Assembly: GCA_041576165.1 (NCBI GenBank)
Contig: JBFGLM010000027.1
Coordinates: 1 to 62,355, forward strand
DNA from: Acidimicrobiia bacterium
GTDB taxonomy: Bacteria > Actinomycetota > Acidimicrobiia > Spongiisociales > Spongiisociaceae
Length of the DNA stretch: 62,355 bases
Direction of reading: 5' to 3'
Shown one piece after another: positions 24,128 through 59,321 of the stretch; the first letter of the stretch is position 1; each line of letters starts with the position of its first letter. The notes under the pieces were generated by a model, which saw only the letters and a list, made by a program, of their open reading frames with translations, was not told the origin of the DNA and did not search any database. The position numbers were made by a program, and so were the translations under genes.

Positions 24128-24799
24128 ATGAGCGACCAGAACACCGATTCGAGCCTCGTGAATCGTGTGCTGACACACACCCGCCAGCGCATCCTCACGG
24201 GCGAATATGCTCCAGGGTCCCGTCTGCGGCTCCATCGTCTCGCCCAAGAATGCGGGGTCAGCTTGATCCCCGTACGCGAAGCGTTGCGGATCCTCGAGGC
24301 CGAACGCTTGGTACAAACCGTGCCGAACAAAGGCGCCACGGTCGCCGGCCTTTCTAGCGCGGATCTCAAGGACCTGTATGCAGTCCGCAAGCAGCTGGAA
24401 GCGGACGCGATCTTGAACTCGCCACCCTTGACCGCCGACGAGAACGACAAGCTGGAGACGATCCTCGAACAGTTGGCGATTGCCAACGAACGTAAGAACG
24501 TCGCGGCCGCCATGCAGTTGCATCGAGAATTCCACTTCTGCCTGTACGAGCGGAGCCGGTCGGAATGGCGGCTCCATCTCATCGAAGTGCTCTGGCATCA
24601 TGCCGAGCGTTACCAATGGCTGTCGCTCGCAGAACGCGAGGATGCGGCCTTTGCCGAACATCACCGGATCCTGGAGGAGCTGCGCAGAGGCCAACGCAAG
24701 CGGGCCGCCACTGCGCTACGCCAGCATCTGGGCACCACCCAGCGGCTCCTCGAAGCGGCCTACTCCGACGAGTCAGTGTTGCGAGCGATCGGGGGATGA
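24128..24799 (+). CDS. GntR family (FCD) transcriptional regulator
   Basis: IL.G.Y.PG.RL...LA...GVS.IPVREAL..LEAE.LV...PNKGA.V; REFH; EH..IL. Confidence 0.93.
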   Translation: MSDQNTDSSLVNRVLTHTRQRILTGEYAPGSRLRLHRLAQECGVSLIPVREALRILEAERLVQTVPNKGATVAGLSSADLKDLYAVRKQLEADAILNSPPLTADENDKLETILEQLAIANERKNVAAAMQLHREFHFCLYERSRSEWRLHLIEVLWHHAERYQWLSLAEREDAAFAEHHRILEELRRGQRKRAATALRQHLGTTQRLLEAAYSDESVLRAIGG

Positions 24800-24845
24800 C
24801 CACGCGACACCGGCCCGCATCTCGACTTCGACCCGTTACCGGCGA

Positions 24846-25661
24846 TCAGCTGCCCAGGAAGTCGAGGATCACCGCAACGGACTGGTCCGGCTGCTCGACG
24901 TAATGGCCGTGGCCGCTGCCCTCGAACACTTCCAGGCGACCGTGCGGCAGATGTTCCGCGACATATCGGGCACCGGCCCCACTCGGGCCCGCATCGAGCG
25001 GGGTCAACACGTCTTCCGAGCCCACCATTATCAGCGTTGGAGCTCGGACACGATCTAGAACGTCGCGCACGTCTGTGTCGATCATGGCCTGGCAGGCGTC
25101 GAGGAAGGTTCCCAAGGGAGCGTTGCGGGCGGTCATGTCCCGCATTTCCGTCAGGACGGCCTCTCCGACCGTGTCGAGGTACGATCGAGAGAACGCATGC
25201 GTGAGCAGCTCGCGCGCAAGCTGTTCGGAGTCCATGCCGTACGCAGTGGCGATCGCCTGCCAGATCCGGAACATGTGAATGCTCATGGCGTCACACTTCG
25301 CAACGGCGCCTGCTCCGAGCAGCAGCTTCTCGACGCGATCGGGAAACCGAACCGCGAAGTCAAGAGCGATGAAGCTGCCCATCGACCCGCCGTGGACGTG
25401 GACCCGGTCCAGCCCAAGCGCATCGAGCAAGCCAACGAGGTCTGCGCTCCAAAGTTCGATGTTGTAGCGAGCATCGGGCCGATCACTCCGGCCATAGCCG
25501 CGATGGTCGTAGTCGAGCACGCGATAGTGCTCGGCCAGCGCAGGTGTCACCGTGGCGTAGCCCTCGTGAGCGCTGACGGCTCCTCCTACCTGTACCACCG
25601 TTTCCCCGCTGCCGCTGAACTGGTACCACAGGTTCACGCCATTCACTGCAATGGTTGGCAC
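24846..25661 (-). CDS. Alpha/beta hydrolase
   Basis: YDHRGYGRS, GGSMGS nucleophile elbow, GSED, GSGH. Confidence 0.9.
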   Translation of the reverse strand: MPTIAVNGVNLWYQFSGSGETVVQVGGAVSAHEGYATVTPALAEHYRVLDYDHRGYGRSDRPDARYNIELWSADLVGLLDALGLDRVHVHGGSMGSFIALDFAVRFPDRVEKLLLGAGAVAKCDAMSIHMFRIWQAIATAYGMDSEQLARELLTHAFSRSYLDTVGEAVLTEMRDMTARNAPLGTFLDACQAMIDTDVRDVLDRVRAPTLIMVGSEDVLTPLDAGPSGAGARYVAEHLPHGRLEVFEGSGHGHYVEQPDQSVAVILDFLGS

Positions 25662-25746
25662 GCTTCACTCCTCTCCGGTGTCGGTGACACCGCGATCAGG
25701 ACGAACGGCTGCGCCAGCCCCGTGGATCCACCTCGCATACTGACCA

Positions 25747-26610
25747 TCACCGCGGCCCGTCGGAGCTCTCCTCCGACGCGGTTCGGGCGGCGATGACGGG
25801 GTTGCTGAGAGTGCCGATCCCCTCGATTTCCAGCGTCACCGTATCCCCCGGTTGCAGGAACTCGGGCGGCTGGCGCGCGAACCCGACGCCACTGGGCGTG
25901 CCGGTGGAGATCACCGTTCCGCGTTGAAGGGTCAGGGACCGCGAAAGATCAGACACGAGCGTGGGCACGTCAAAGATGAGATCTGCGGTGCTCGACGATT
26001 GCTTGAGCTCACCATTCACCCACAGCCGAACCGCGAGCGAATCGGCAGGACCCAGCTCGTCGACAGTCGTCATCCACGGGCCCATCGGTTTGAAGGTGTC
26101 AAACGATTTCGCTCGGCTCCACTGACCCTCTGCCCGCTGAACGTCGCGAGCTGACACATCGTTGACGATCGTGTACCCGGCGACGTGGCGTAATGCGTCC
26201 TCTGGAGCAATATCACGGCCGGGCGTGCCGATGACGATTCCCAGCTCTACTTCCCAGTCGACCTCGCGGCTGAAAGCCGGAAGCTCGATGGGTTGGTCCG
26301 GGTGCGCCACCGCGGACGAGTACAAGGGGAACGATACCGGGGCAGCCGGGATCTCGTTCCCACCCTCCATCGCGTGTTGCCGGTAGTTGAGTCCGATACC
26401 GATGAACTGAGCGGGACCTGGGATCGGCGCCAGCAGCCGAACTTGGTGCAGGGGTGCTATCGACTCGGTGCGCGCGGCCAGCACGACGAGGTCGGCATCA
26501 TCCTTCAAGGCCGGCTCGATGCTCGTACCAGGCTGAACTGCACATGCCGCCCCGTCACGGACAAAGCCCCACGACCGCACTCCGTCGAACTCAAAAAGCG
26601 CGACGTGCAT
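25747..26610 (-). CDS. Fumarylacetoacetate hydrolase family protein
   Basis: IGLNY.QH, VDWEVELG, GYTIVNDVSARD.Q, W..AKSFDTF.P.GP, TGTPSGVG. Confidence 0.93.
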   Translation of the reverse strand: MHVALFEFDGVRSWGFVRDGAACAVQPGTSIEPALKDDADLVVLAARTESIAPLHQVRLLAPIPGPAQFIGIGLNYRQHAMEGGNEIPAAPVSFPLYSSAVAHPDQPIELPAFSREVDWEVELGIVIGTPGRDIAPEDALRHVAGYTIVNDVSARDVQRAEGQWSRAKSFDTFKPMGPWMTTVDELGPADSLAVRLWVNGELKQSSSTADLIFDVPTLVSDLSRSLTLQRGTVISTGTPSGVGFARQPPEFLQPGDTVTLEIEGIGTLSNPVIAARTASEESSDGPR

Positions 26611-26683
26611 CCTCGCTCTCCCGACGGCGCCAGGCGTGGATTGTATATCATTCGGCCGAGCCCGGAAGGTATGGAGGACGCCG

Positions 26684-27067
26684 GTGGAAGCGATTGAGGT
26701 TGACGCAATGTGCCCGCCTCCGGAGCCGTACTCGTACGCAATCAAGGCTGGCGGGGTGATCTACCTCGCCGGACAGGTCTCCCTCGACGCTGCCGGCCAC
26801 GTGGTCGGCGACACCGTGGAAGCGCAGGCCCGCCAGGTCTGGCAAAACATCTCAGATGTGCTCGCAGCGTCCGGCAGCTCCATCGCAGACGTCGTCAAGA
26901 TCACCTACTACATGCAGGACATCCGGGAGATCGCCGAGGAGATCCCGATCCGGCGAGAACTGTTTGCCGGCCGCCCATTTCCTGCCGTGACTGCGGTACA
27001 GGCCGCAGCGCTGGGCTTGCCCGGACTGAAGATGGAGGTGGACGTGATCGCGGTGCCAAATGGCTGA
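26684..27067 (+). CDS. RidA/YjgF family protein
   Basis: PYS.AI, IYLAGQV, Q.RQV..NI..VL, DVVK.T.Y, FPA.TAV....L, EVD.IA. Confidence 0.9.
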   Translation: MEAIEVDAMCPPPEPYSYAIKAGGVIYLAGQVSLDAAGHVVGDTVEAQARQVWQNISDVLAASGSSIADVVKITYYMQDIREIAEEIPIRRELFAGRPFPAVTAVQAAALGLPGLKMEVDVIAVPNG

Positions 27068-27248
27068 TCTTTCGGTCGACGCAGTTCGTGAACTATTGCG
27101 CCGAAGTGGTTTGGACCACACCGTGTTCGATGTGGAAGACGTCACCACCGACCTCAACGCCGCGATCAAGCAGGCGACCGAGCTCGACACGCTCTTGGAA
27201 GGCGGACCGAGCGTGGACCCGAGCGCATTCGCCGTAGATTGGCGATGA
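27060..27248 (+). CDS. Small hypothetical protein translationally coupled to the amidase (possible GatC/AtzG-like partner)
   Basis: 62 aa; overlaps the ridA stop and has an ATGA overlap with the amidase start. Confidence 0.6.
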   Translation: MADLSVDAVRELLRRSGLDHTVFDVEDVTTDLNAAIKQATELDTLLEGGPSVDPSAFAVDWR

Positions 27249-28648
27249 TCGGGCGCACGATCTCGGACATGGCCACCGCGCTCCGGGCAGGCGATGTGAG
27301 CTCGGCCGATTTGACCGAAGCGGCATTGAGCGGCATCGCTCGGCTGGACGATCGCCTCAGAGCATTTGTGGTCACCGACCCGGATGGCGCGCAGGCCGCC
27401 GCCGCCGACGCCGACGCTGCCCTGGCGGCTGGCAACGATAGGGGCCCGCTCGTGGGGGTACCGGTGGCAGTCAAGGACATCATCGACATGCAGGGACTGC
27501 CTACTCGGTGCGGATCGCCAGCCTATCCGGAGGTGCCGTCCAGCCGGGACGCCTCCGTGGTATCCCGGCTCCGCTCGGCCGGCGCAGTGATCGTTGGCAA
27601 AACCACCGCACATGAATTGGCGTGCGGCGTCTACAGCCCGCCGGCCGTCAATCCGTGGGACGTCACACGTTTGCCGGGCGGATCGAGCGGAGGCTCGGGC
27701 GGGGCCGTCGCGGCCGGGCTGGTGGCGATGGCGTTGGGCAGCGATACCGGCGGATCGATCCGGATCCCGGCCGCGGTATGCGGGGTGACAGGACTCAAAC
27801 CTACGTACGGTCGGGTTTCACGCCATGGGGTCGAGCCGCTCTCATGGTCGCTCGACCACATCGGGCCTCTGGCGGCGTCTGTTCGCGATTGTGCCCTCAG
27901 CCTCGGCGCCATGGCCGGTGCCGACCCGGCCGATCCATCCACGGCGCAAGTTGCCGTGCCTGACTTCGCGGCTTCGCTCGATCGAGGCGTCGACGGCCTC
28001 CGGGTAGGCGTCCTGACAGGGCCGTCCTTCTCGCCGATGGCACCGGACGTCGAACGAGCGTTCTTGGCTGCGGTCGACCACCTCCGGTCGCACGGTGCCG
28101 AGCCGGTGACATTGGAAATCCCGGAGCTCGAATACACGCTGGCGGCCGAGTTCGCCATCGTCGGCGCCGAAGCCGCTCATTACCATCGCCGCCTCCTGCG
28201 CGAGCAGCCCGATCGCATCGATCCCGGCATCCGGACGCTCCTTGTGACCGGCACGCTGCGTCCTGCCGCCGACTACCTCAAAGGGCTGTCGGCCCGCACG
28301 GTCGTCCGAGATGCGATTCGCAGGACCTTCGAGGAACACCGGCTGGATGTCGTTGCGACCCCGACGCTCCCCGAAACCGCTGGCGGTCTCGAGCAGACAG
28401 AATTCGAGATCGAGGGCGCGCGAGAGCAGGTCACGAGCGCCTATGTGAGAACAACCGCTCCATTCAATCTGTCGGGGCTGCCGGCGTTGTCAGTTCCGTG
28501 TGGGATCGATGGCAACGGTCTGCCGATCGGCCTGCAACTGGCGGGACGGCCGTTCGCCGAGGAGACGGTGCTCCAGGTTGGTGCGGCCTACGAATCCACA
28601 ACCACGTGGTCGCAACGCCGGCCGCCGATCCATGTCGCCGCCGCATGA
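27245..28648 (+). CDS. Amidase signature family enzyme (GatA/AtzE-like)
   Basis: GPL.GVPVAVKD, GKT..HE.A.G, PGGSSGGSG.AVAAG, GSDTGGSIRIPA..CG..GLKPTYGRVS. Confidence 0.95.
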   Translation: MIGRTISDMATALRAGDVSSADLTEAALSGIARLDDRLRAFVVTDPDGAQAAAADADAALAAGNDRGPLVGVPVAVKDIIDMQGLPTRCGSPAYPEVPSSRDASVVSRLRSAGAVIVGKTTAHELACGVYSPPAVNPWDVTRLPGGSSGGSGGAVAAGLVAMALGSDTGGSIRIPAAVCGVTGLKPTYGRVSRHGVEPLSWSLDHIGPLAASVRDCALSLGAMAGADPADPSTAQVAVPDFAASLDRGVDGLRVGVLTGPSFSPMAPDVERAFLAAVDHLRSHGAEPVTLEIPELEYTLAAEFAIVGAEAAHYHRRLLREQPDRIDPGIRTLLVTGTLRPAADYLKGLSARTVVRDAIRRTFEEHRLDVVATPTLPETAGGLEQTEFEIEGAREQVTSAYVRTTAPFNLSGLPALSVPCGIDGNGLPIGLQLAGRPFAEETVLQVGAAYESTTTWSQRRPPIHVAAA

Positions 28649-28717: not shown

Positions 28718-29371
28718 ATGGAAGGTGAACCCGACCTAGCCCGGCGACTGACGGCAGTCCACACCGCTCTGCTGTGCGATTCGCTCGACTCGCTCGGATT
28801 CCGAGACGCTGCGCTGGGCCCTGACATCCAGGCGCTCGGTCGGACAAGGGCAATGGTGGGCCGGGCGTTCACGATCCGGTGCGAAGCTGCGACGCAGCTT
28901 CCGACATCGCCGTACGAACATCTCATCGCCGCGTTCGATCATCTTGCCGAGGGCGACGTGATCGTGATTCAGACCGGCGAGCAGGTCTCGGCCATGTGGG
29001 GTGAGCTGCTGACTACAGCCGCCATCGCAGCCGGAGTCCGCGGAGCCGTGATGGATGGGCTGGCCCGGGACCTCGACGACATCGACGCAATGAGCTTTCC
29101 CGTGTTCGGGACCGGAATATCGCCGATGGACTCTGCCGGCCGCCAGGACGTCGTCGAATACGGCCGCACCATCACATGTGGAAATGCGGATGTCCGTCTG
29201 GGTGACTGGATCGTCGGCGACACGATGGGCGTGGTCGTGGTCCCGGTCGAACTGGCCGAGGACGCCACGGCACTGGCGGAACAGAAGCTGGGATCTGAGT
29301 CAACCGTGAGAGAGGAACTCGCCCGGGGCGACTCTCTCGAGGAGGTGTTTCGAAGGCATGGCGTTCTGTGA
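28718..29371 (+). CDS. RraA family / HMG-aldolase-like protein
   Basis: DSLD, GRAFT, WGEL, GAVMDG..RD, FPVF, GD..GVVVVP. Confidence 0.88.
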   Translation: MEGEPDLARRLTAVHTALLCDSLDSLGFRDAALGPDIQALGRTRAMVGRAFTIRCEAATQLPTSPYEHLIAAFDHLAEGDVIVIQTGEQVSAMWGELLTTAAIAAGVRGAVMDGLARDLDDIDAMSFPVFGTGISPMDSAGRQDVVEYGRTITCGNADVRLGDWIVGDTMGVVVVPVELAEDATALAEQKLGSESTVREELARGDSLEEVFRRHGVL

Positions 29372-29471: not shown

Positions 29472-30299
29472 GTGCCGATGACCACTCTTCCCACCGGCAT
29501 CGACATGTATTACGAGACGGCAGGAGCCGGCGATCCCCTACTCCTCATCATGGGTACGGCAGCCGATCACAGCACGTGGGCCGCCCAGGTTGAGGCGTAC
29601 CAGGACGATTACACGGTCATCACGTACGACGCTCGCGGCACAGGGCAGTCCACCCACCCCTCTGACCCCACGACCTACTCGATGAGGGTGCTGGCCGATG
29701 ACGCCGCCGCGTTGCTCGATCACCTCGGAATCAGCCGGGCGCACGTGTCGGGCCTGTCACTCGGCAGCGCCACCGCTCAGGAGCTGGCGATCAACCATCC
29801 CGACATGGTCGCCACCCTTCAGCTGCACTGCACCTGGGGCCGGTCAGACGAGTGGTTCAATCGCATGATCGACACCAATGCGCTGCCCGTCCAGCTCGAC
29901 GATTTCGAGCGGTACATCCGGACGGCTTTGTTATGGGTGGCAAGTCCCCAGTTCATCAATGAGCGGCCCGATGATGTAGCCGCGTTCGAACGTGGGTTCA
30001 TCCTGGAGAACCCTCATCCGCCCAGCCAAGAAGGCATGCTCGGCCATTTCCATGCCGATCAGACCCACGACACGCTTGATCGGCTGCATCACATCGCCGT
30101 ACCGACGCTGATCACGTCAGGTGAGGTCGACTGGCAGGTCCCGACCCGCTACGGACTCGACGTGCAAGCACGAATACCCGGCTCGACCATGCACGTGTTT
30201 CGCGGTCCGGCCTCTAGTCACATCGCGTTCGTCGAAATGGTTGACGAATGGAATGACTTCACACTCGCCTGGCTTCGTCGGCTCGGGCCAATTCGCTGA
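29472..30299 (+). CDS. Alpha/beta hydrolase (enol-lactonase/RutD-like)
   Basis: YDARGTGQS, GLSLGS, GEVD, SSH; SD AAGGAG. Confidence 0.9.
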   Translation: MPMTTLPTGIDMYYETAGAGDPLLLIMGTAADHSTWAAQVEAYQDDYTVITYDARGTGQSTHPSDPTTYSMRVLADDAAALLDHLGISRAHVSGLSLGSATAQELAINHPDMVATLQLHCTWGRSDEWFNRMIDTNALPVQLDDFERYIRTALLWVASPQFINERPDDVAAFERGFILENPHPPSQEGMLGHFHADQTHDTLDRLHHIAVPTLITSGEVDWQVPTRYGLDVQARIPGSTMHVFRGPASSHIAFVEMVDEWNDFTLAWLRRLGPIR

Positions 30300-31076
30300 T
30301 CAGTGGGCCGTCCACCCGCCGTCAACCACGAGCACCGAACCCGTCATATAGCTCGATGCATCCGAGGCGAGGAAGAGCGCGGCACCCTGTATCTCGTGTA
30401 GTTCCCCCCACCGACGCAGCGCCACCTCCTGGTTGATGACCCGGCGAGCATGCTCGGTGTCTCGAAACGGAATGTTCATCTCAGTCAGGAAAGGCCCGGG
30501 GGCCAGCGCGTTCACCGTGATCGCAGCATCCGCCCACTCCATAGCCAGTGCCCGGGTGAGCTGTATCACCGCGCCTTTCGAGGTCGTGTAGGCGGTCCGG
30601 TCAGGTGCCGCCACCAGTCCGAAAGTCGACGCAATGTTGATGACGCGTCCGTGACGGGATGCCTTCAGGTAAGGGGCGGCAGCCCGGCACAGCGCCCAGG
30701 CACCGGTCACGTTGACGGCCAGGGAGCGTTCGAAGTCGGTCTTCTCCAGCTGCTCGATTGCTCCTCGCACGTTGATGCCGGCATTGTTGACGAGGATGTC
30801 GAGGCCACCGAACTCTGCGACGGCCCGTTCGACCGCACGCGACACGTCGGCATCCTGCGCGACGTCACCCGCTACCGCCAGCGCCGGCCCACCGGTGGCA
30901 TCGGTGATCGCGCGGGCGGCCCGAGCCAGGGCCCGCTCGTCGCGGCTCATCACGGCCACTGAGGCACCTGCCCACGACAGCGCCTCGGCAATTGCGGCTC
31001 CCAGACCCCGAGAGCCGCCGGTTACGAGTGCGGTTCGGCCGTCAAGCCGGAAGAGCTCGAGTGGATCAGCGGCCGT
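30300..31076 (-). CDS. SDR family oxidoreductase (gluconate 5-dehydrogenase-like); the only plausible start is ACG
   Basis: LF.LDGRTALVTGGSRGLG, LVNNAG, NIAS, YTTSK, VNALAPG, VDGG; no ATG/GTG/TTG upstream of the Rossmann motif in frame. Confidence 0.85.
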   Translation of the reverse strand, partial: TAADPLELFRLDGRTALVTGGSRGLGAAIAEALSWAGASVAVMSRDERALARAARAITDATGGPALAVAGDVAQDADVSRAVERAVAEFGGLDILVNNAGINVRGAIEQLEKTDFERSLAVNVTGAWALCRAAAPYLKASRHGRVINIASTFGLVAAPDRTAYTTSKGAVIQLTRALAMEWADAAITVNALAPGPFLTEMNIPFRDTEHARRVINQEVALRRWGELHEIQGAALFLASDASSYMTGSVLVVDGGWTAH

Positions 31077-31605: not shown

Positions 31606-31810
31606 GCGCATCCCTTCCGGTCGTCGATCGTTGCCGGTGCCGCTCCGAGCTGCTGTTGACCAGCACGCATCCTGTTGTGCCGGCTGAGCACCGCGGGTCC
31701 AAAGATTATAATATTTCGCATGCCGGTGCCCTCGATCCCGCCTCTCGGTTTGCTCCGGCAGGGCGAACCTGCGAATCGCGAAAGCTAGATTCGGTGCAAC
31801 GGGAGGCTTT

Positions 31811-36597: not shown

Positions 36598-36608
36598 GTT
36601 TCATCCCT

Positions 36609-45482: not shown

Positions 45483-45491
45483 CGGTTACGC

Positions 45492-46640: not shown

Positions 46641-46697
46641 CCCGTTCCTCCCCGGATCGCCTGTTCGGAATTTATCAAATCTCGTAGTCTGCTCGCC

Positions 46698-50989: not shown

Positions 50990-51112
50990 AGTCACGGATC
51001 CTCCGAACACCCGCCCGGTGCGCGCCGGGCCCGATTTGATAACATTCTGACGCCCCGCCGCCGGCCCGGGCAACCGGCAGGCGACGAACCCACATCACAT
51101 GAGGATCTTCGG

Positions 51113-51676: not shown

Positions 51677-52836
51677 GGGGCCACGCCCGCCGGGCGCTCG
51701 GGCTGCGCCGCTCCGACATCCGAATCCTGTTCGACGCCGCCGATCGAATCCCCGACGCAATCCGGCTCGAGGTAGGTGAGCCGAGCTTCACGACGCCGGC
51801 CCACATCATCGCCGCCGCAGCGAGCGCCGCCCAGGACGGCTGGACCCAGTACGGTCCGAACGGGGGTTTGGCCTCGCTACGTGAGTTGCTGGCGGACAAG
51901 ATCGCCCGGGTCGACGGGTTCACAGTCGATCCCGCACAGGTAGTGGTGACGCCCGGTGGCATGAATGCGCTGTTCTCGACCTATCTGGCGTTGCTCAACC
52001 CGGGGGACGAGGTGCTGCTGCCCGCACCAGGCTTCCCGAATATGGACGAGATGGTGCGGCTCATCGGCGGCACCCCGGTGTTCTACCCGCTGTCCGCAGC
52101 CGATGGCTGGGCGCCCGACCTCGAACGGCTCGAATCGCTGGTGACCGACCGCACGACGATGCTGTTCGTCAACACGCCGGCCAACCCGACGGGCGCAGTC
52201 TTTGGAGAGGCCGTCATGCAGGCGCTGGTCGAGTTCTGCAACCAACACGATTTGTGGATGCTGTCCGACGAGGTGTACGACGAGATGATCTTGGATCATG
52301 ATGCCCGTCACACCGCTGCTGCTCGCTTCGACGAAGCGAACCGAGTCATCACTGTCTACAGCTTCTCCAAGATCTACGCCATGACCGGCTGGCGAGTCGG
52401 CTACGCGGCCGCGCCTGCCGAAATCGCGGAGCTGCTGCGCACCTTGCAGGAACCACAGGTGTCATGCCCCAGCACGATTTCACAGAAAGCGGCGGAGGCC
52501 GCCCTCACCGGACCCCAGGAACCCATCCGGGCGATGGTCGACGCCTACCGCCGGAGACGCCACCTGGCCCTCGAAGTCGCCCGCGAGGTCGGGCTCGTTG
52601 CGGTGCCCCCGCCCGGCACGATGTACATGCTCCTCGAGATCGACCCAGGCGGCCGGTCGTCGCTGGAATTTGCGCTGCACCTGCTGCAGCAGCATGAGGT
52701 GAGCGTCGCTCCGGGCGCCGTCTTCGGTCCTGGATCCGACGGCTACGTGCGGATCTCCCTCGCGGCCGAGGAGGGGCACATAGCCGAGGGTCTCCGGCGG
52801 ATCGCCAAAGCCGCGGAACCGGCCGGCACCAGATGA
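51673..52836 (+). CDS. PLP-dependent aminotransferase class I/II, paralog of 34565-35728
   Basis: LEVGEPSF.TP, NTPANPTG, SDEVYDE, SFSK.YAMTGWRVGY; GTGA overlap. Confidence 0.95.
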   Translation: MRGHARRALGLRRSDIRILFDAADRIPDAIRLEVGEPSFTTPAHIIAAAASAAQDGWTQYGPNGGLASLRELLADKIARVDGFTVDPAQVVVTPGGMNALFSTYLALLNPGDEVLLPAPGFPNMDEMVRLIGGTPVFYPLSAADGWAPDLERLESLVTDRTTMLFVNTPANPTGAVFGEAVMQALVEFCNQHDLWMLSDEVYDEMILDHDARHTAAARFDEANRVITVYSFSKIYAMTGWRVGYAAAPAEIAELLRTLQEPQVSCPSTISQKAAEAALTGPQEPIRAMVDAYRRRRHLALEVAREVGLVAVPPPGTMYMLLEIDPGGRSSLEFALHLLQQHEVSVAPGAVFGPGSDGYVRISLAAEEGHIAEGLRRIAKAAEPAGTR

Positions 52837-54065
52837 GCATCGAAGCCACGGTCACGACCTATCTCGACGCGCGGGCGGCGGATGTACTCGAGTTCGCCCG
52901 CGACCTCATCCGGACGCCGTCGCCCAACCCGCCCGGCGACGAACGGGCGGTTGCAGACGCGGTCACAACCCGTCTGCGAGAGCTGGGAGTGGATCACGTC
53001 GAGCGGGTCGGGGCCGCCGAAGAACGGCCCAACCTCATCGTGCGGGTCCCGGGTTCATCGCCCGGGCCGAGGTTGATGCTGTCCGGCCACCTGGATACGA
53101 AACCGGCCGGTGACCTGACAGCGTGGGAGACTGATCCCTGGGACCCGGTCGTAGACGACGGCCGGCTCATTGGCCTGGGATCGGGCGACATGAAAGCTGC
53201 GGTGGCGGCCATGGTCTACGCCCTCGGCGCCGTGGCACACGCAGGTGACTTTCCGGGCGAGCTCGTGGCGGTGTTCACCGCCGACGAAGAGGCCGGTTCG
53301 GTGCTCGGGTCCAAATGGATGGCGGAGCAGGGGTTGCTGGACGCCGACGCTGCGATCATCGGGGAGCCGAGCGGTATCGAGCGTGAGTGGGAGTCAATCC
53401 ATCTGGTCTCCCGCGGCGCGGCCCTGTTCAAAGTCAAGTTGACCGGGACCCAGATGCATAGTTCGATCTCCGATCGGATTCGCGGCATCAACGCGACGCT
53501 GAAGATGGCCGAGCTGATGCTCCGGATGGACCGCGATCTCAAGTCATATCTGACATTCGAGCCCCATCCGCTGTGTCCGACCGGACCAACCATCAATGTC
53601 GGTGTCATGGCCGAGGCCGGTGTCTTCTACGGCGTGTATCCGGGCAATGCTGAGTTCGCCTGCGACGTGCGCACGCTGCCCGGGATGACGGAAGAACAGA
53701 TGCAGGCGGACATCGGGCGGTTCCTCGCCGACGCCATGGCGGACGACCCGGAAATCCGCGCCGTCCTGGCCTGGGAGATCATGGTGCCGGCGACGGAGAT
53801 CCCGGCCGGGGAGCCGATCATCGAGGTACTGCAACAGGCCGGACGCGAGGTGCTCGGCACCGCACCCAAGCTGGACGCATTTCCCGGGGCCACCGATGCC
53901 CCCCACTTTCAACTCACCGCCGGCATCCCCTGTGTCGCAGCTTTCGGGCCCGGCATGCTGCCGCGAGCACACAGCCCCAACGAGCACATGGCGGCCGCCA
54001 GCGTCGCCCAGGCGGCCATGATCTACGGACTCGCCGCCACCCGCTATCTGGAGCGCGGGCGGTGA
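52833..54065 (+). CDS. M20/ArgE/DapE family deacylase
   Basis: SGHLDT, GLGS.DMK, DEEAG, IGEPS, HSS, GATD, GPG...AH.PNE. Confidence 0.93.
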   Translation: MSIEATVTTYLDARAADVLEFARDLIRTPSPNPPGDERAVADAVTTRLRELGVDHVERVGAAEERPNLIVRVPGSSPGPRLMLSGHLDTKPAGDLTAWETDPWDPVVDDGRLIGLGSGDMKAAVAAMVYALGAVAHAGDFPGELVAVFTADEEAGSVLGSKWMAEQGLLDADAAIIGEPSGIEREWESIHLVSRGAALFKVKLTGTQMHSSISDRIRGINATLKMAELMLRMDRDLKSYLTFEPHPLCPTGPTINVGVMAEAGVFYGVYPGNAEFACDVRTLPGMTEEQMQADIGRFLADAMADDPEIRAVLAWEIMVPATEIPAGEPIIEVLQQAGREVLGTAPKLDAFPGATDAPHFQLTAGIPCVAAFGPGMLPRAHSPNEHMAAASVAQAAMIYGLAATRYLERGR

Positions 54066-54730
54066 CGACCACGGCCGATTTGTGTGCTCGCTACCGCCGG
54101 CTCTACATGCCGGCCGTGGCGGACGCGCTCTATTCATTGGGAATGCCCGAACAGGTTCTGCCGACCACGCTGCGTCCGCTGTTTTCCGAGGAACGCATCG
54201 CCGGTATCGCCTTCACCCTGCAAGGGGCGCCTATCGAACCACACATCGATTGGGAAACGGGGATAGAGCGGATCACCTCCTACCTCGAGGTGTTCGAGCA
54301 CCTAACGCCGGACACTGTCATCGTTTCCGTCAACCCGAACAGCCACGTGGGTCACTTCGGCGAGCTAACGGGAAACTCCGCGCAACAGCATGGCTGTGTC
54401 GGGGTGATCCTCGATGGGAATCTGCGGGATATCGAAGGGCTGCGCGATATCGGCCTCCAGGTGTTCTACCGGGATCTGTCACCGCTCAACGCGATCGGAC
54501 GGTGGGAGATGGTGGCGTCACAGATACCCGTGACGATCGGCGATGTCACGATTCATCCCGGGGACGTCATCATCGGAGAATTCGACGGCGTGCTGGTGGT
54601 TCCCGGGGCGGACGCAGAGACCGTCCTGCTCAGGGCCGAGGAGATCGTCGCCGCCGAGAAGCTGGTGCGCTCTGAGATGCAAGCCGGCGAATCGCCGCTG
54701 TCCAGCCTCGACCGCCACGGGCACATCTGA
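54062..54730 (+). CDS. RraA family / HMG-aldolase-like protein
   Basis: VADAL, G.AFT, FGEL, DGN.RD, IHPGD.I.G..DGVLVVP. Confidence 0.88.
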   Translation: MTTTADLCARYRRLYMPAVADALYSLGMPEQVLPTTLRPLFSEERIAGIAFTLQGAPIEPHIDWETGIERITSYLEVFEHLTPDTVIVSVNPNSHVGHFGELTGNSAQQHGCVGVILDGNLRDIEGLRDIGLQVFYRDLSPLNAIGRWEMVASQIPVTIGDVTIHPGDVIIGEFDGVLVVPGADAETVLLRAEEIVAAEKLVRSEMQAGESPLSSLDRHGHI

Positions 54731-54969
54731 TGTCGGGGCGGGTCCCGCTGGTCGTGCCCCAACTCGGGGTCGTGGAGGAGATCGTGGTTCTGGAATGGCT
54801 GGTGGAGGACGACGCGCGCGTCGAGGTCGGCCAGGAGGTGGTGTCCATCGACACGGAGAAGGCCGACGTGATGCTGGAAGCGCCCGCGACGGGGACGCTG
54901 ACCATCGTCGTGCGCGAATCAGACGAGACGGTACCGGTCGGCGCCACGCTGGCCTACGTAACGCCGTGA
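54730..54969 (+). CDS. Free-standing lipoyl-carrier domain protein
   Basis: VPQLG...E..V.EWLV..V..GQ.VV.IDTEKA...LEAPA.G.L...ETVPVG..LA; lipoyl-Lys in TEKA. Confidence 0.88.
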   Translation: MSGRVPLVVPQLGVVEEIVVLEWLVEDDARVEVGQEVVSIDTEKADVMLEAPATGTLTIVVRESDETVPVGATLAYVTP

Positions 54970-55718
54970 CCCTCGATCAGTTCTCGTTAGCCGGGCGGGT
55001 GGCGGTCATCACCGGTGGGGCCGGCGGCCTTGGTCAAGCGATCGCCCGTACGTTCCATGCGGCCGGTGCGGAGGTCGTGAGCTTCGACACCGACGCAGAA
55101 TCGAACCGGAGATTGGCGGCCGAGCTTGACGGAAGTGCGTTCACCGTCGACGTGACCGACCCGCCTGCGACCGAGCAGGCCACAGCAGAGGTGCTTGCCA
55201 CATGGGGTCGGATCGATGTTCTCGTCAACACCGCCGGCCTCGGCGGCCGCGGCCGCGCCGAGCATTACCCTCGAGATCTGCTGGACCGCGTGGTAGAGGT
55301 CAACTTGAAAGGATCGCTCTTCATGTGTCAGGCCGTTGGGCGGTCTATGCGCACCATCGGTTCAGGCTCCATCGTGAATATCGCATCCATCGGCGGTCTG
55401 GTCGGTTATCCCGGGAGCGTCGGATACCAGATGAGCAAGGGCGGGGTCGTGCAGATGACCCGCACGCTGGCGGTGGAGTGGGCTGCCTCCGGAGTTCGGG
55501 TCAATGCCGTCGCACCGGGGCACGTCGGTACCGACATGGTGCAAGAGATGTGGAAGACAGAACCGGAGCTGAAGGAGTTCTTTCTCTCCCGCACACCGAT
55601 GAGTCGCCTCGCCGACCCCGGTGACGTTGCGCTCCCGGTCCTGTTCCTGGCTTCTGACGCGGCCGCCATGATCACCGGGCAGGTGCTCTCGGTCGACGGC
55701 GGATACACGGCGCAATGA
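54966..55718 (+). CDS. SDR family oxidoreductase
   Basis: F.L.GRVAVITGGAGGLG, LVN.AG, NIAS, YQMSK, VRVNAVAPG, VDGG. Confidence 0.93.
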   Translation: MTLDQFSLAGRVAVITGGAGGLGQAIARTFHAAGAEVVSFDTDAESNRRLAAELDGSAFTVDVTDPPATEQATAEVLATWGRIDVLVNTAGLGGRGRAEHYPRDLLDRVVEVNLKGSLFMCQAVGRSMRTIGSGSIVNIASIGGLVGYPGSVGYQMSKGGVVQMTRTLAVEWAASGVRVNAVAPGHVGTDMVQEMWKTEPELKEFFLSRTPMSRLADPGDVALPVLFLASDAAAMITGQVLSVDGGYTAQ

Positions 55719-56695
55719 CGGACCGGACCGTGTCTCCCGAGGTTGGTCGCCGGCTCCATGCCACCATGGTCCTCATCCGCGTGTTTGAGACGAGGGTGGA
55801 GGAGCTCTTCAGGGTGGGCGAACTTCCGGGCTTCGTGCACACATATCTGGGCGAGGAGGCGATCGCCGCCGGAGTGTGCGCGGCCCTCCGCGAGGACGAC
55901 TACATCACTTCGACGCACCGGGGCCACGGACACGCGATCGCCAAAGGCATGGATCCCAAGGCGATCATGGCTGAGCTGTACGGAAAAGAGACGGGCGCCT
56001 GCCGGGGTCGAGGCGGCTCGATGCACGTCGCCGATTTTTCGATCGGGATGCTGGGCGCCAACGGTATCGTCGCCGGCGGCTTGGGAATCGCAGCTGGGGC
56101 CGCTTTGTCCGCACGGGCCCGAGGGTCAGACCGGGTTGCGGTCGCCTTCTTCGGCGACGGCGGTATCAACAAAGGCACGTTCCACGAAGCCCTGAACTTC
56201 GCGGCCGTGCACCGCCTGCCCGTCGTGTTCGCATGCGAGAACAACCAGTACGCGCAGTTCACAGCACGGGAGCGCACGACGGCGGTCGAGGATCTGGCGA
56301 TGCGGGCCACCGCCTACGGAGTACCGGGAATCACCATCGACGGCAACGACGTCGCCGCCACCCACCTCGAAACCGCGGCAGCCGTGGCCGCTGCTCGCCG
56401 CGGACTTGGGCCTGCCCTCCTCAACATGGAGACGTACCGGTATGGCGGGCACTACGTCGGCGACGCCGAGGTCTATCGAGACGCCGCCGAAGTCGATGCC
56501 CGGCGGCGGGACGATCCCATCGAACGCTGGGAGGCAAATCTGCAGGAACGCGGCTGGATCGACGCAAGGGCCATCGAAGCGGTGTGGGAGTCTGCCCGCG
56601 ACACCGTGGCAGAAGCTGAGGCTTTCGCCGCGTCGAGTCCCGATCCCGCTCCTGACACGGCCCTCGACGCCGTCTTCAGCGATGGGCCGCCATGA
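55715..56695 (+). CDS. TPP-dependent dehydrogenase E1 alpha subunit (AcoA/PdhA-like)
   Basis: R.FE, GF.H.Y.GEEA, STHRGHGH, GRGGSMH, FFGDG...G.FHE.LN, ENNQY, TYR..GH. Confidence 0.95.
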   Translation: MTDRTVSPEVGRRLHATMVLIRVFETRVEELFRVGELPGFVHTYLGEEAIAAGVCAALREDDYITSTHRGHGHAIAKGMDPKAIMAELYGKETGACRGRGGSMHVADFSIGMLGANGIVAGGLGIAAGAALSARARGSDRVAVAFFGDGGINKGTFHEALNFAAVHRLPVVFACENNQYAQFTARERTTAVEDLAMRATAYGVPGITIDGNDVAATHLETAAAVAAARRGLGPALLNMETYRYGGHYVGDAEVYRDAAEVDARRRDDPIERWEANLQERGWIDARAIEAVWESARDTVAEAEAFAASSPDPAPDTALDAVFSDGPP

Positions 56696-57672
56696 CCGAG
56701 CAGCGTATGACCTTCGGCCAGGCCACGGTCGACGCGACCCGGTCCGCGATGCGAGAAAACGAACGGGTGATCGTGCTGGGTGAAGATATCTCGTGGGGCG
56801 GCAACTTCGGACAATTCCGGGGACTCGTCGACGAGTTCGGTCCCGACCGTGTGATCGACATGCCCATCTCCGAGGCGATCATCATGGCCACCGCGGTTGG
56901 TGCCGCGATCACCGGTATGCGGCCTGTGGCGTCGATGAGCTTCGTCGAGTTCACGCTCGGCGCCATGGACGAGATCGTCAACCAGGCGTCCAAGTTCAGG
57001 TACATGTTCGGTGGCCAGGTCTCGGTTCCCCTGGTGTTGCGAGCGTCGGACGGAATACTGCGATCGTCGGCGGGCCAGCACTCGTCAAGCCTCGAAGGCC
57101 TGTTCACCCACATTCCGGGACTCAAAGTAGTGGCGCCCTCCAATCCGGCCGATGCCAAGGGGCTGCTGCGGTCGGCGATCGACGACGACGATCCAGTCAT
57201 CTACCTCGAAAACAAGAGGATCACCGCCAAGCGCGGGCAAGTCCCGACCGGAGACCACCGTGTGCCGCTCGGAGCGGCGGCCGTCCGCCGGGTCGGCACC
57301 CATGTCACGGTTGTCTCGTACTCGGTGATGGCGCTGCACGCCGCAGCCGCATGTGAAGAACTAGCCGAGGAAGGCATCGAGGCGGAACTGATCGATCTGC
57401 GTTCCCTCGTTCCATTCGACGCAGAGACCGTGCTCGAATCGGTGGCGAGGACGGGCCGGTTAGTCATGGCGCACGAGGCCTGGACGTTCGGCGGCTTCGG
57501 CGCCGAGGTGGTGGCGGCTGTGACAGAGAACGTGTTCGATCGCCTCAAGGCGGCCCCGGCCCGGGTGGGGGCGGCCCCGGCCCCGATCCCCTTCAGCCCG
57601 CCCCTCGAAGCAGCGGTGGTGCCTGGTCCCGACGCGGTGACGGACGCTGTTCGCCGGGTCATGTCCGACTGA
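56692..57672 (+). CDS. TPP-dependent dehydrogenase E1 beta subunit (AcoB/PdhB-like)
   Basis: GEDI, FG..RVID.PISE, G.RPV, DEIVNQA.K..YMFGG, QHS, PGLKVV.PS.P.DAKGLL, IDLRSL.P.D. Confidence 0.95.
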   Translation: MTEQRMTFGQATVDATRSAMRENERVIVLGEDISWGGNFGQFRGLVDEFGPDRVIDMPISEAIIMATAVGAAITGMRPVASMSFVEFTLGAMDEIVNQASKFRYMFGGQVSVPLVLRASDGILRSSAGQHSSSLEGLFTHIPGLKVVAPSNPADAKGLLRSAIDDDDPVIYLENKRITAKRGQVPTGDHRVPLGAAAVRRVGTHVTVVSYSVMALHAAAACEELAEEGIEAELIDLRSLVPFDAETVLESVARTGRLVMAHEAWTFGGFGAEVVAAVTENVFDRLKAAPARVGAAPAPIPFSPPLEAAVVPGPDAVTDAVRRVMSD

Positions 57673-58452
57673 TCAGCCTGTCTCGTCGACGTCGTTCCAG
57701 GTGGTGAGACCGGTCCCGCCCACCCGGTGATAGGCTATCGCCCGCTCCGACGATGACGATCCGGGTCCGGCGTGGTAGACGCCGGATGCCCGATGGACGT
57801 ACGAGCCCGGTAGGTAGACCTGTTCGATGGGGCGGCCCTCCACATTCTCGAGAACGGTGAACGACCCGTCCAGCACGAACATCTCCTCGGGCCCGTCGTG
57901 GTAGTGCCAGGGCCCCCCGTCATTCGCCCACTCCCTGGCGCCCGAGATATAGACCGCGCCCGCCGGACCTTGCGCGAGTTCACGTACGTACCGGCCCGGC
58001 AGCCGATCGACCGCCGCCCAGGTTTCTTCGGCCGCCCGGGCCACCTGCGGCTGGGCGAGCGCTCCCCCGGCCGATGTGTCGTAGCGGATGGGCGCGGAGG
58101 TCATGAGCAGCGCAACGGCCGGCGTGTCGGCGCGGAGCCCGCGTATGAGCTGACCGGCCCGCACGGCGAAGTAGTCGTACTGCCCGATCTCATGTCCGGC
58201 GACGGTGAGGCGGCCCTCGATCACAAACAACTCGATATCGGCGGTGAACGCGCCGGACTGTGCGGTGCCCCATCCCAGCGGCACACGCACCAACCGGGTC
58301 GCCGGCCCGGAGTGATCCTTCGACAGAATGCGCGCATCGAGCCTGCCGTCTAGTCCCGAGATCACCATCGTTCTGACCGGCAGATCGAAGTCGGCCGCCA
58401 CGATCAGCTGGTGATGCCGTCGATCGACGACTGCCGGATCGGACGTCGCCAT
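57673..58452 (-). CDS. Cupin-fold (ChrR/DUF4437-like) protein
   Basis: Two cupin-like repeats: ELFV.EG.L...G.YDY and HYH...EEMFVLDG...PGSYVHR..GVYH.GP. Confidence 0.7.
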   Translation of the reverse strand: MATSDPAVVDRRHHQLIVAADFDLPVRTMVISGLDGRLDARILSKDHSGPATRLVRVPLGWGTAQSGAFTADIELFVIEGRLTVAGHEIGQYDYFAVRAGQLIRGLRADTPAVALLMTSAPIRYDTSAGGALAQPQVARAAEETWAAVDRLPGRYVRELAQGPAGAVYISGAREWANDGGPWHYHDGPEEMFVLDGSFTVLENVEGRPIEQVYLPGSYVHRASGVYHAGPGSSSSERAIAYHRVGGTGLTTWNDVDETG

Positions 58453-59321
58453 CACGCAGTGCGCAGGACGGGGAGCACGTCCGCCGCCACTCGTTCGAGC
58501 ACCTCCCGCTGCCCCGGGGCCGGCTGGTCCATGATGAACTCGTTGATTCCGACCTCGACGTAGCGACCCACGACTTCTTCGAAGGCTCCCACACTCGACC
58601 ACGGGTCGGGCATCCCTTGCGCCTCCATCATGGACGACCAGCAGTAGAGCGAGCGCCGGATGGCGGCGCTCGCCCGGCCAACGTCCGAGCAATGCTCGTC
58701 CAGCAAGTTGTTTCGGGCTGCGATCTCGTCCACCGACCCGAATGAGTTCCAGCTATCGGCGTACTCCGCACAGATGCGCAGCATGCGGGTGCGATGGGCC
58801 CCGAGCACGAGTGGTGGCCGCGGCCGCTGGACTGGTCTGGGCCGGATCGAGGCGCCGTCGAGCTGATAGTGGGTTCCGGAGAACGAAACCGACTCATCCC
58901 GCAACAACGCGTCGAGCACCCGCACCGCCTCTTCGAATATGGCGACCCGCTTCCCCGGGTCGGGAAAGTCGATGCCGAAACGCTGATGCTCCGGGACATA
59001 CCAGCCGGCACCGAGCCCGAGCTCCAGCCGGCCGCCGGAGATGTGGTCGACGGTCGTTGCTTGCTGGGCGAGCAGCGCCGGATGCCGGAATGTGTTGGAG
59101 CTGACGAGTACCCCCAGCCGGATCGTCGAGGTCCGGGCCGCGAGCGCGGACAGAAGTGTCCAGCCTTCGAAATACGGCCCGTCGGGCTGGCTCGGTTGAT
59201 TGAAGTGATCGCAATCCCACACGCTGTCAAAGCCCAGCTCCTCGAACAGCTGCCAGCGGCGCGCTAGATCTTCAAACGGCTGGTTCTGATCCGTGCAGAT
59301 GCCGAATCGGATCACGACCAC
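58452..59321 (-). CDS. LLM class flavin/F420-dependent oxidoreductase
   Basis: ELGFDS.W.CDH, EGWT.L.ALAA.T..IRLG.LV..N.FRHPA.LA..A.T.DHIS.GRL.LG.GAGW..EH, PRP.Q.P.PP. Confidence 0.92.
   Translation of the reverse strand: MVVIRFGICTDQNQPFEDLARRWQLFEELGFDSVWDCDHFNQPSQPDGPYFEGWTLLSALAARTSTIRLGVLVSSNTFRHPALLAQQATTVDHISGGRLELGLGAGWYVPEHQRFGIDFPDPGKRVAIFEEAVRVLDALLRDESVSFSGTHYQLDGASIRPRPVQRPRPPLVLGAHRTRMLRICAEYADSWNSFGSVDEIAARNNLLDEHCSDVGRASAAIRRSLYCWSSMMEAQGMPDPWSSVGAFEEVVGRYVEVGINEFIMDQPAPGQREVLERVAADVLPVLRTA

Follow-up and report, generated by a model that had tools for sequence, protein, structure and literature searches.

A putative GntR-controlled catabolic regulon with a family-5 ABC importer in a Spongiisociaceae genome

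We analysed a 62,355-nt stretch of DNA (hereafter the window) covering positions 1 to 62,355 of contig JBFGLM010000027.1 from the Acidimicrobiia bacterium assembly GCA_041576165.1, placed in the family Spongiisociaceae by the Genome Taxonomy Database (GTDB). Positions 24128-59321 of this marine genome hold a 35-kb block of 37 genes that is very probably one co-regulated unit, because five promoter regions share one putative operator and the gene order recurs elsewhere. We give an even chance to the reading that the block is a GntR-controlled catabolic regulon through which an imported small amide or ester conjugate would be hydrolysed, deaminated, aldol-cleaved and oxidised, a chemistry suggested by protein families and operon structure. 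By analogy, the block can be expected to work like a substrate-inducible catabolic cluster with a family-5 ATP-binding cassette (ABC) importer and a GntR repressor. An earlier note, made from the sequence alone, had described an orphan catabolic island of about 38 contiguous genes in this interval; the contiguous block stands, with a count of 37.

The window has a G+C content of 65%, and plain lists of its open reading frames (ORFs) are crowded with false frames. Frames, including those of the 37 genes, were chosen by third-position G+C, the proteins were then scanned against Pfam (53 ORFs) and NCBIfam (41 proteins in the equivalog check), and gene starts were refined through conservation and ribosome-binding sites. 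The gene families named in the earlier note were all found, with two canonical alpha/beta hydrolases and a degenerate third one. Since none of the 41 scanned proteins reached an NCBIfam equivalog cut-off, no known pathway matches the block as far as family models go; the NCBIfam models that were passed are of broad subfamily type only, namely those for two CocE/NonD hydrolases, an EthD protein, one class of F420-type luciferase-like oxidoreductases and one class of short-chain dehydrogenases/reductases (SDRs). A literature search found no published description of the cluster, in line with the earlier note, which had not recognised the combination as a described pathway. Passages of PMC11706023 give family names and nothing on the present locus.

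Gibbs sampling revealed an 18-nt AT-rich imperfect palindrome in all five divergent intergenic regions of the block. These putative operators lie between the genes, described below, for FAH and RidA (26638-26655), PPOX1 and ATPaseF (31699-31716), the solute-binding protein (SBP) and the epimerase (42126-42143), EthD and CocE1 (46665-46682), and CocE2 and PPOX2 (51032-51049). Each site was dropped from the matrix in turn and then scored against the 5.1-Mb genome. The third site reached 19.9 with no better place in the genome, followed by the fifth (three better places), the second (eight), the fourth (15) and the first (score 15.2, 18 better places). At 14.5 bits the genome holds 24 other places, or about 0.2 expected per 40 kb. 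Three genomes of other families (G256, G118 and G114) carry four, four and five places, respectively, within 37-40 kb, each of them located in a divergent intergenic region that corresponds to one of the window: sites 2, 3 and 5 recur in all three, site 1 in G256 and G114, and site 4 in G118 and G114. Many of these places score on both strands. An alignment of 18 sites out of four genomes shows positions 2-4 nearly fixed as GAT (G in 13, A in 18 and T in 17 sites); positions 8-10 (ATA) and 14 (T) do not vary. With the 18-site matrix, only the five sites reach at least 13 bits in the 62-kb window; a sixth, weaker match at 24066, upstream of the GntR gene, was not counted.

The first gene of the block (24128-24799, plus strand; coordinates are those of the window, and strands are given below as + or -) encodes a GntR/FCD transcription regulator with a winged helix (Pfam GntR, 59 bits) and an FCD domain (68 bits). 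Its orthologues, 52-56% identical, adjoin the alpha/beta hydrolase gene abH1 in G256, G114 and G118, and motif and GntR orthologue beside abH1 co-occur in four of four genomes, the window genome included. The four scanned family genomes without the GntR gene (G015, G019, G013 and G002) show no such pattern, save one weak site upstream of the SBP gene in G013. On contig C41, a GntR paralogue with 34% identity likewise has a motif-like AT-rich palindrome, about 100 bp upstream of its gene. The GntR/FCD protein is probably a repressor acting through the five palindromes, and ten transcription units with 34 genes would answer to it.

We also found that the block recurs within the class, over a comparison of 301 genomes and 57 loci. 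Of the 24 genomes of the same GTDB family, 23 carry an SBP orthologue with 70-88% identity, and the one without it is 72% complete. In the same order, 16 genomes (G028 and G039, both flagged as unpublished, among them) from eleven further families gave no orthologue (best match 31%). The titles of public records with an orthologue read Candidatus Spongiisociaceae, Ca. Spongiisocius, Ca. Aldehydirespirator, or Acidimicrobiia or Acidimicrobiales metagenome-assembled genomes. At 46 loci, counted with 10 kb on each side at 50% identity or more unless stated and with two loci that are seemingly one isolate filed twice, the four adjacent ABC genes and abH3 (at any identity) are present throughout. 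Amidohydro_2 follows with 44 loci, the C45-like gene with 36, ATPaseF with 29, AT1 with 26, SDR2 with 23, M20 with 22, CocE2 and AT2 with 21 each, the epimerase with 19, the lipoyl protein and SDR3 with 16 each, RraA2 with 15 and E1a with 14; GntR, FAH, RidA, the amidase and MlrC were each found at 0 of the 46.

Outside the family, G114, G118 and G256, which belong to two other GTDB families, carry nearly the whole block, and the sampled members of those families are mostly without it. G256 keeps 32 of the 37 genes (identity of at least 45%) in an unchanged order that runs from abH1 to E1b, with GntR and an MlrC orthologue just outside abH1. The MlrC orthologues adjoin GntR on its outer side in G256 and G118; in the window MlrC stands beside the C45-like gene. 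G118 additionally has homologues of RraA1, the cupin and the luciferase-like oxidoreductase (LLM). Given these near-complete blocks, the borders drawn in the earlier note appear well chosen. A class-wide search with an alignment of the C45-like protein gave strong matches in 5 of 301 genomes, those outside the family coming from family f4 (2 of 35 sampled genomes) and family f2 (1 of 16). The markers GlmU and PGM (8660-10054/18345-20105) do not separate the families: the window proteins are 54-60% identical in G015 and G002 of the same family and 54-57% identical in G114 and G256 of other families, and in G118 GlmU was matched only in part (45%) and PGM not at all. Conservation is higher for the cluster proteins, with 73-78% identity for the SBP and 80-85% for permease B, than for either marker. 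Because the same genes recur together in other genomes, as seen in the 46 loci, in eight 80-kb views and in G256, G114 and G118, their grouping is more than chance, and the word orphan used in the earlier note no longer applies.

Based on the protein families, a course of degradation can be proposed. A Tat-exported family-5 lipoprotein would pass a small hydrophilic compound to a Dpp/Nik-type ABC importer. In the cytoplasm, amide and ester bonds would be opened by a rare C45-like cysteine N-terminal nucleophile (Cys-Ntn) hydrolase, M81 and M20 metallopeptidases, two CocE/NonD serine hydrolases, alpha/beta hydrolases, an Amidohydro_2 enzyme of the lactonase type and two further enzymes, one with the amidase signature and one a short amidase of the FmdA type. 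Two class I aminotransferases and a RidA deaminase would remove nitrogen. The resulting 2-oxo acids, probably 4-hydroxy-2-oxo acids, would then be split by HpcH, two RraA-like proteins and an FAH hydrolase into pyruvate and aldehydes. The fragments would be oxidised by SDR, alcohol dehydrogenase (ADH) and PPOX enzymes and by an E1 alpha/beta pair of the pyruvate dehydrogenase (PDH) or acetoin type with its own lipoyl carrier, a module that may handle a 2-oxo acid or acyloin. Aldolases of the HpcH and HMG/CHA families cleave 4-hydroxy-2-oxo acids, and the released amino acids would therefore be gamma-hydroxylated or become so; the lactonase-type enzyme would fit acids that lactonise. The scheme of the earlier note, with import, deconjugation, keto-acid aldol cleavage and oxidative decarboxylation, agrees with the operon structure and with a triad of C-N hydrolase, nitrogen removal and class II pyruvate aldolase that occurs three times (FmdA, AT1 and HpcH; M20, AT2 and RraA2; amidase, RidA and RraA1). 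Its caution that the substrate cannot be read from sequence also stands. We only tentatively suggest a substrate class, with somewhat less than even confidence: a small pseudo-peptide, that is, an N-acyl, aminoacyl or ester conjugate with a non-proteinogenic amino or hydroxy acid, possibly gamma-hydroxylated.

Several observations weigh against a single regulon with one substrate. Binding of the motif by the GntR protein is something we infer, and the motif lies upstream of the SBP gene in only 9 of 46 loci and is absent from most genomes of the family. The modules vary between genomes: in the eight 80-kb views, the left arm abH1-FAH-RidA-amidase-abH2 has the same place and orientation in four genomes, E1a/E1b are near the importer in one, and GntR and MlrC are near it in none. 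Every reaction is a family-level guess, no equivalog cut-off being reached. No E2 catalytic domain and no E3 was found in the window by Pfam scans, abH3 is seemingly dead as a catalyst, and the nearest relatives of the SBP by sequence are nickel binders rather than peptide binders. The cluster of G015 (loci L009/L010) is interrupted by genes for an SLH/LRR surface protein, a YgjP-like protein, a DUF4143 ATPase, an S13 D-Ala-D-Ala carboxypeptidase with an SLH domain and a Gp49-like toxin, and with such unrelated insertions part of the linkage may reflect inheritance rather than selection.

These points lead to the rival explanation that survives best, although we consider it unlikely: the block could be a mosaic of independent small pathways, joined by descent and accretion, that act on different substrates and share only a regulator or a niche. 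One such pathway would be the importer plus two or three hydrolases; the others would be units of amino-acid deacylation, of acetoin-like E1 and of amidase/FAH. The differing module content speaks for such a mosaic, as do the insertions in G015, which leave the gene order undisturbed, and locus L084, the most distant orthologous locus (SBP identity 59%), where only the C45-like gene, importer and abH3 are kept as a minimal unit that adjoins complex I genes. So do the many paralogous modules of the genome, with ten E1a and ten E1b matches and a second GntR-abH-amidase...E1ab group on contig C41. However, the same putative operator occupies all five divergent promoters, one ATPase gene is split from the transporter and heads an enzyme operon, and 32 of 37 genes keep one order in G256, with G114 and G118 nearly as complete and their families mostly devoid of the block.

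The left arm of the block begins after the GntR gene with abH1 (24846-25661, -), an alpha/beta hydrolase (Abhydrolase_1, 77 bits) that is PcaD-like but below the cut-off (TIGR02427, 134 vs 256), and an FAH-family hydrolase (25747-26610, -; FAA_hydrolase 241 bits; NF053535, 204 vs a cut-off of 500). Across the first divergent promoter follow a RidA-family imine deaminase (26684-27067, +; Ribonuc_L-PSP 98 bits) and an amidase-signature amidase (27239-28648, +; Amidase 378 bits), which resembles AtzE, the 1-carboxybiuret hydrolase, but stays below two NCBIfam models for it (356 vs 461 for NF006631, and 355 vs 426). Next come RraA1, an RraA-like protein of the HMG/CHA-aldolase family (28718-29371, +; RraA-like 125 bits), and the alpha/beta hydrolase abH2 (29472-30299, +; Abhydrolase_1 92 bits), which is 77-81% identical in G015, G007, G019, G021, G114, G118 and G256. 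The arm ends with SDR1 (30300-31040, -; adh_short_C2 196 bits) and PPOX1 (31066-31611, -; PNPOx_N 38 bits), a PPOX-family protein of the F420-type class (TIGR03618, 52 vs 79).

SDR1 (30300-31066 with its N-terminal extension) has no canonical start codon for its N-terminus, which runs upstream of the first canonical start: the Rossmann motif TGGSRGLG and a conserved N-terminal peptide lie in frame ahead of it. Of 14 distinct orthologous sequences (loci L025-L083), 12 have no ATG, GTG or TTG 5' of the Rossmann motif; CTG and ATH codons were likewise absent from the few sequences inspected by eye. Eight codons ahead of a conserved Leu-Phe, an AGGAGG or AAGGAG is conserved; in the window it overlaps the end of PPOX1, the SDR frame being +1 relative to PPOX1. 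Non-canonical initiation or a frameshift fusion could account for this arrangement.

Divergently from PPOX1 runs an enzyme operon that starts with ATPaseF (31811-32869, +), an ABC ATPase of the DppF/OppF type (ABC_tran and oligo_HPY; NF008453, 398 vs 408). It continues with an HpcH/HpaI class II pyruvate aldolase (32869-33657, +; HpcH_HpaI 124 bits, all equivalog scores below cut-offs), a short FmdA/AmdA-family amidase of about 300 residues (33654-34568, +; FmdA_AmdA 95 bits) and the class I aminotransferase AT1 (34565-35728, +; Aminotran_1_2 240 bits). The FmdA-type protein falls in an uncharacterised 300-residue group, and its closest entries in the PDB are the uncharacterised 'putative acetamidase/formamidase' chains 5ubu and 2ii1. 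The adjoining Amidohydro_2 protein (35725-36597, -; Amidohydro_2 88 bits) is of the lactonase or decarboxylase type; it has the conserved motifs HxH, NHLG and SDWPW, and its best PDB match is 2ffi, a putative 2-pyrone-4,6-dicarboxylate hydrolase (E = 3e-6).

To the right of the SBP gene stands an NAD-dependent epimerase/dehydratase-family protein (42176-43153, +; Epimerase 119 bits), followed by the C45-like gene and an M81/MlrC-family metallopeptidase (44007-45482, +; DUF1485 260 bits and MlrC_C 123 bits; NF041767, 134.7 vs 999). SDR2 (45492-46277, -; adh_short_C2 170 bits) and an EthD-family protein (46299-46640, -; TIGR02118 at 56.5, above its cut-off of 30.5) lead to the fourth divergent promoter. 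Beyond it lie the CocE/NonD (S15) hydrolase CocE1 (46701-48230, +; TIGR00976 276 bits), a member of the Zn-dependent ADH family (48227-49231, +; ADH_N and ADH_zinc_N) and a second CocE/NonD (S15) hydrolase, CocE2 (49232-50989, -; TIGR00976 422 bits), whose best PDB match is cocaine esterase (273 bits).

The last divergent promoter opens onto an eight-gene operon, PPOX2-AT2-M20-RraA2-lipoyl-SDR3-E1a-E1b, along which stop and start codons overlap. PPOX2 (51113-51676, +), with a translation like that of PPOX1, was masked by longer spurious ORFs, and tblastn gave a paralogue match at position 51017 of contig C27; the earlier note had counted two PPOX proteins, and this is the second. It is followed by the class I aminotransferase AT2 (51673-52836, +; Aminotran_1_2 234 bits), an M20 deacylase of the ArgE/DapE type (52833-54065, +; Peptidase_M20 122 bits; TIGR01910, 213.2 vs 217.6) and RraA2 of the HMG/CHA-aldolase family (54062-54730, +; RraA-like 89 bits; 64 bits to PDB 3noj, a CHA aldolase). 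A free-standing 79-aa lipoyl-domain protein (54730-54969, +) matches Biotin_lipoyl (46 bits) and the lipoyl part of the AcoC model PRK14875 (55 bits), and SDR3 (54966-55718, +) matches adh_short_C2 (220 bits). The operon closes with thiamine diphosphate (TPP)-dependent E1 alpha (E1a; 55715-56695, +; E1_dh 262 bits; TIGR03182, 341 vs 394), for which the best PDB match is PDH E1 alpha (193 bits), and E1 beta (E1b; 56692-57672, +; Transket_pyr and Transketolase_C, 126 and 119 bits). At the right end lie a protein that is only weakly assigned as cupin-like (57673-58455, -; Cupin_7 and Cupin_2 below cut-offs), so that this item of the earlier note is less secure, and the F420-type LLM (58452-59321, -; TIGR03560 at 236.7, above the cut-off of 231.4). 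Homologues of the cupin-like protein, 39-44% identical, occupy the same cluster end in G114 and G118.

The E1 genes recall the acetoin dehydrogenase system (AcoA/AcoB/AcoC) and PDH E1: they encode, at family level only, a heterodimeric TPP-dependent E1 alpha/beta, and their neighbours are a lipoyl-domain gene and an SDR gene of the butanediol-dehydrogenase type. One half of the AcoC model PRK14875 is matched by the lipoyl protein, the other by the alpha/beta hydrolases. Unlike in AcoABC, the lipoyl domain is a separate 79-aa protein and not a part of a fused AcoC, E2 catalytic domain and E3 are missing from the window, and scores for Aco and PDH models fall below their cut-offs (341 vs 394, 312 vs 321 and 55 vs 307). 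By tblastn, the genome contains ten matches each for E1a and E1b, the window's own included. As a separate observation, paralogues of the GntR, alpha/beta hydrolase, amidase, SDR, E1a, E1b and RidA genes are grouped on contig C41 at about 8.9-21.2 kb.

The RraA-like and HpcH proteins beside an FAH hydrolase and Amidohydro_2 resemble pathways with class II pyruvate aldolases (LigK, HpaI/GarL/YfaU). In contrast to those pathways, the block lacks a ring-cleavage dioxygenase and a sugar-acid dehydratase, its aldolases are paired with aminotransferases and amidases, and scores stay below the cut-offs for LigK (83 vs 304.5) and HpaI (130 vs 369). A pathway for a deoxy sugar, sugar acid or glycoconjugate is another, very improbable explanation, in which a sugar-binding family-5 protein would feed a dehydrogenase, a lactonase, a 2-keto-3-deoxy acid stage and an aldolase or FAH hydrolase. 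Some family-5 binding proteins do bind oligosaccharides, and weak best matches were obtained with L-fucono-1,5-lactonase (42 bits), L-rhamnose 1-dehydrogenase (149 bits), 2,4-didehydro-3-deoxy-L-rhamnonate hydrolase (204 bits) and 2-keto-3-deoxy-L-rhamnonate aldolase (106 bits). However, these equivalogs of the non-phosphorylative L-rhamnose/L-fucose pathways have far higher cut-offs (400, 400, 500 and 441, respectively). No sugar-acid dehydratase of the enolase-superfamily, IlvD/Edd or DapA type was found among the 53 ORFs scanned with Pfam, the Pfam and NCBIfam scans gave no kinase or glycoside hydrolase in the block, and a sugar pathway leaves no role for at least nine C-N hydrolases and two aminotransferases. 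The sugar-acid-type lower pathway proposed in the earlier note thus comes down to a family-level resemblance.

The importer comprises an SBP (40266-42083, -; SBP_bac_5 PF00496, 175 bits vs a cut-off of 32), a permease of the C type (39247-40188, -; BPD_transp_1 at 115 bits, and OppC_N), a permease of the B type (38333-39250, -; BPD_transp_1 146 bits) and an ATPase of the DppD/OppD type (37298-38329, -; ABC_tran and oligo_HPY). The SBP is an exported lipoprotein: its twin-arginine translocation (Tat) motif reads TRREFMK, its lipobox LAAC, and a Thr/Gly/Asp-rich linker comes next. Together with the second ATPase these are the parts of a family-5 importer, with exported SBP_bac_5, two BPD_transp_1 permeases and two ATPases with an oligo_HPY C-terminal region (76 and 63 bits). 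The earlier note had called the importer complete, and all parts are present; the second ATPase (31811-32869), however, lies outside the transporter operon, 4.4 kb off at the head of the divergent operon ATPaseF-HpcH-FmdA-AT1. An AlphaFold model of the SBP from 23 close orthologues had a mean predicted local distance difference test (pLDDT) score of 42.6 and was unusable.

The SBP-permease-ATPase operon ends with abH3 and Amidohydro_2. The product of abH3 (36609-37301, -) is a degenerate alpha/beta-fold protein with weak Abhydrolase matches. Its nucleophile position is variable (S, R, T, A, G, K, W and others), and ahead of the C-terminal helix Gly-Pro replaces the usual Gly-His. The protein is a likely pseudo-enzyme of the transporter operon.

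An importer for nickel, cobalt, a metal chelate or an opine-like metallophore, with enzymes that are unrelated or recycle the chelator, has little probability. In its favour, the PDB search with the SBP ranked CcNikZ-II, a nickel binder (8EFZ, 104 bits), first and NikA entries next, and the top NCBIfam matches are NikA for the SBP and the Opp2B nickel permease for permease B (285 bits), with NikD sixth-ranked for the ATPase (272 bits). All three nevertheless fall below their cut-offs (NikA, nickel_nikA, 110 vs 393; Opp2B 285 vs 350; NikD 272 vs 319), hydrolase-fold genes sit inside the transporter operon, and the Pfam scan found no nickel enzyme nearby. The preprint on 8EFZ (10.1101/2022.10.03.510666) gives a double-His prong near the C-terminus as the Ni(II)-binding signature; of 47 SBP orthologues, 23 have HH there and 24 have HN, YN or KN, and with the prong not conserved we rejected the SBP as a nickel binder.

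The block shares with the Dpp, Opp and Nik importers one family-5 SBP, two permeases, two oligo_HPY ATPases and hydrolases encoded alongside, and differs from them in that one ATPase stands apart, a probably dead alpha/beta-fold protein is part of the operon and about 30 enzyme genes accompany the importer instead of one or two. In Escherichia coli, ddpXABCDF and gsiABCD are family-5 ABC importers with linked peptidase genes. The mlr microcystin cluster (MlrA-D) provides a further likeness, since the block has an M81/MlrC-family metallopeptidase beside a peptide-type transporter. MlrD, however, is a proton-dependent oligopeptide transporter, whereas the transporter of the block is of the ABC type; moreover, its M81 protein belongs with MlrC at family level only (NF041767, 134.7 vs 999), and Pfam scans found no MlrA- or MlrB-type protein in the block. 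Membership in the mlr, Aco, AtzE, Nik or deoxy-sugar systems was ruled out by scores below cut-offs and missing features.

The C45-like Cys-Ntn hydrolase (43192-44001, +) was placed in this class by its Met-Cys start and its Ntn fold model. The earlier note had assigned it to peptidase family C45; fold and N-terminus agree with that, and the sequence scores stay below both curated cut-offs (PF03417, 16.2 vs 23.2; NF040521, 37.2 vs 85). All 39 distinct orthologues begin with Met-Cys or Val-Cys, so that the nucleophile Cys is residue 2 and there is no propeptide. In a 34-member alignment the conserved residues are C2, K18, D21, N64 and R170, with C2 in at least 90% of members and K18 invariant; the spacing of Cys, a basic residue at +16 and Asp at +19 is, we take it, that of choloylglycine hydrolases. 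The structure model (pLDDT 94.1) matched 3gvz (CV2077), 2x1d (isopenicillin-N acyltransferase, IAT), penicillin V acylase, bile salt hydrolases and NAAA with Foldseek probability 1.0 and gave TM scores of 0.65-0.69 against 2x1d and 3gvz, and its Atlas neighbours carry PF03417. The protein is thus, as modelled, a real Ntn hydrolase by fold and N-terminus, and a predicted enzyme.

With IAT and peptidase C45 this protein shares the Ntn alpha-beta-beta-alpha sandwich and the Cys nucleophile. It differs in having no propeptide, in its length of 269 aa compared with about 350, in its scores below the Pfam and NCBIfam cut-offs and in forming a small family of its own, with 86 clusters, many of them fragments, among 1.84 billion representatives. 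The C45 family also includes insect Tan, a beta-alanyl-amine hydrolase. The gene is inverted in the window relative to the seven genomes of the 80-kb views that carry it and to G256, G114 and G118. The slot beside it is filled by M81/MlrC in the window and by an M20-like peptidase in G256, G118 and G015, and from this replacement a metallopeptidase seems to be needed there.

The least probable explanation, a recently acquired mobile genomic island, could draw on the patchy distribution outside the family, visible in the few strong C45 matches, and on flanks that are not common to other genomes, but composition and border marks do not support foreign origin. Block and flanks hardly differ in third-position G+C (GC3; 0.792 and 0.794, respectively, Mann-Whitney p = 0.84), their codon frequencies correlate with r = 0.98, and the tetranucleotide profile of the block correlates with that of the genome with r = 0.992, a value that falls among those of random 35-kb pieces (0.982-0.994). 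G+C is flat along the window. There is no tRNA at the block borders, the only tRNAs of the window being at 1665 and 10079, no repeats flanking the block were found, and Pfam scans of the window proteins gave no integrase or transposase domain. The comparison of codon usage and GC3 with the flanks, which the earlier note had proposed, therefore shows no difference, and its word island does not hold in the sense of foreign DNA.

The DNA 5' of 24 kb is ordinary actinobacterial housekeeping, with Ku, LigD, WhiB, PRPP synthetase, GlmU, IspE, KsgA, TatD and RsmI. It also includes a gene (21010-22956, +) for a 648-aa fusion of an N-terminal Rieske [2Fe-2S] domain with a complete three-domain TPP enzyme of the acetolactate-synthase type; tblastn gave seven matches in its own genome, itself included, the paralogues being about 30% identical. 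To the right of the block, 59413-62354 encode an M50 peptidase, a choline-dehydrogenase-like GMC oxidoreductase (583 bits vs a cut-off of 605) and a multicopper oxidase fragment. These right-flank genes are unlinked to the block elsewhere, save single M50 homologues in G020 and at 1 of 46 loci.

In conclusion, nothing known about catabolic gene clusters is overturned or contradicted by the block. Acidimicrobiia of this group are known only from metagenome-assembled genomes, many records of relatives bear sponge-associated names, and the diet of these bacteria is largely guesswork; about 0.7% of the genome is apparently given to one compound class. The soluble binding protein, the regulator with its five putative operators and the small high-confidence Ntn amidase model offer experimental handles on the compound. 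The wider yield includes an uncharacterised branch of peptidase C45, a conserved pseudo-hydrolase in a transporter operon and a family of SDR genes that lack a canonical start codon. It is a distinctly speculative extension, and we regard it as doubtful, that the regulon is dedicated to one natural product or signal from a host or neighbour, that entry into the pathway is by a new propeptide-less C45 subfamily, that the dead abH3 is a fixed ABC accessory and that the trait defines a marine and sponge-associated group of Acidimicrobiia. If so, the natural product may be a small depsipeptide, an N-acyl or beta-alanyl conjugate of a gamma-hydroxy amino acid (of the homoserine-lactone type) or a pantothenate-like amide.

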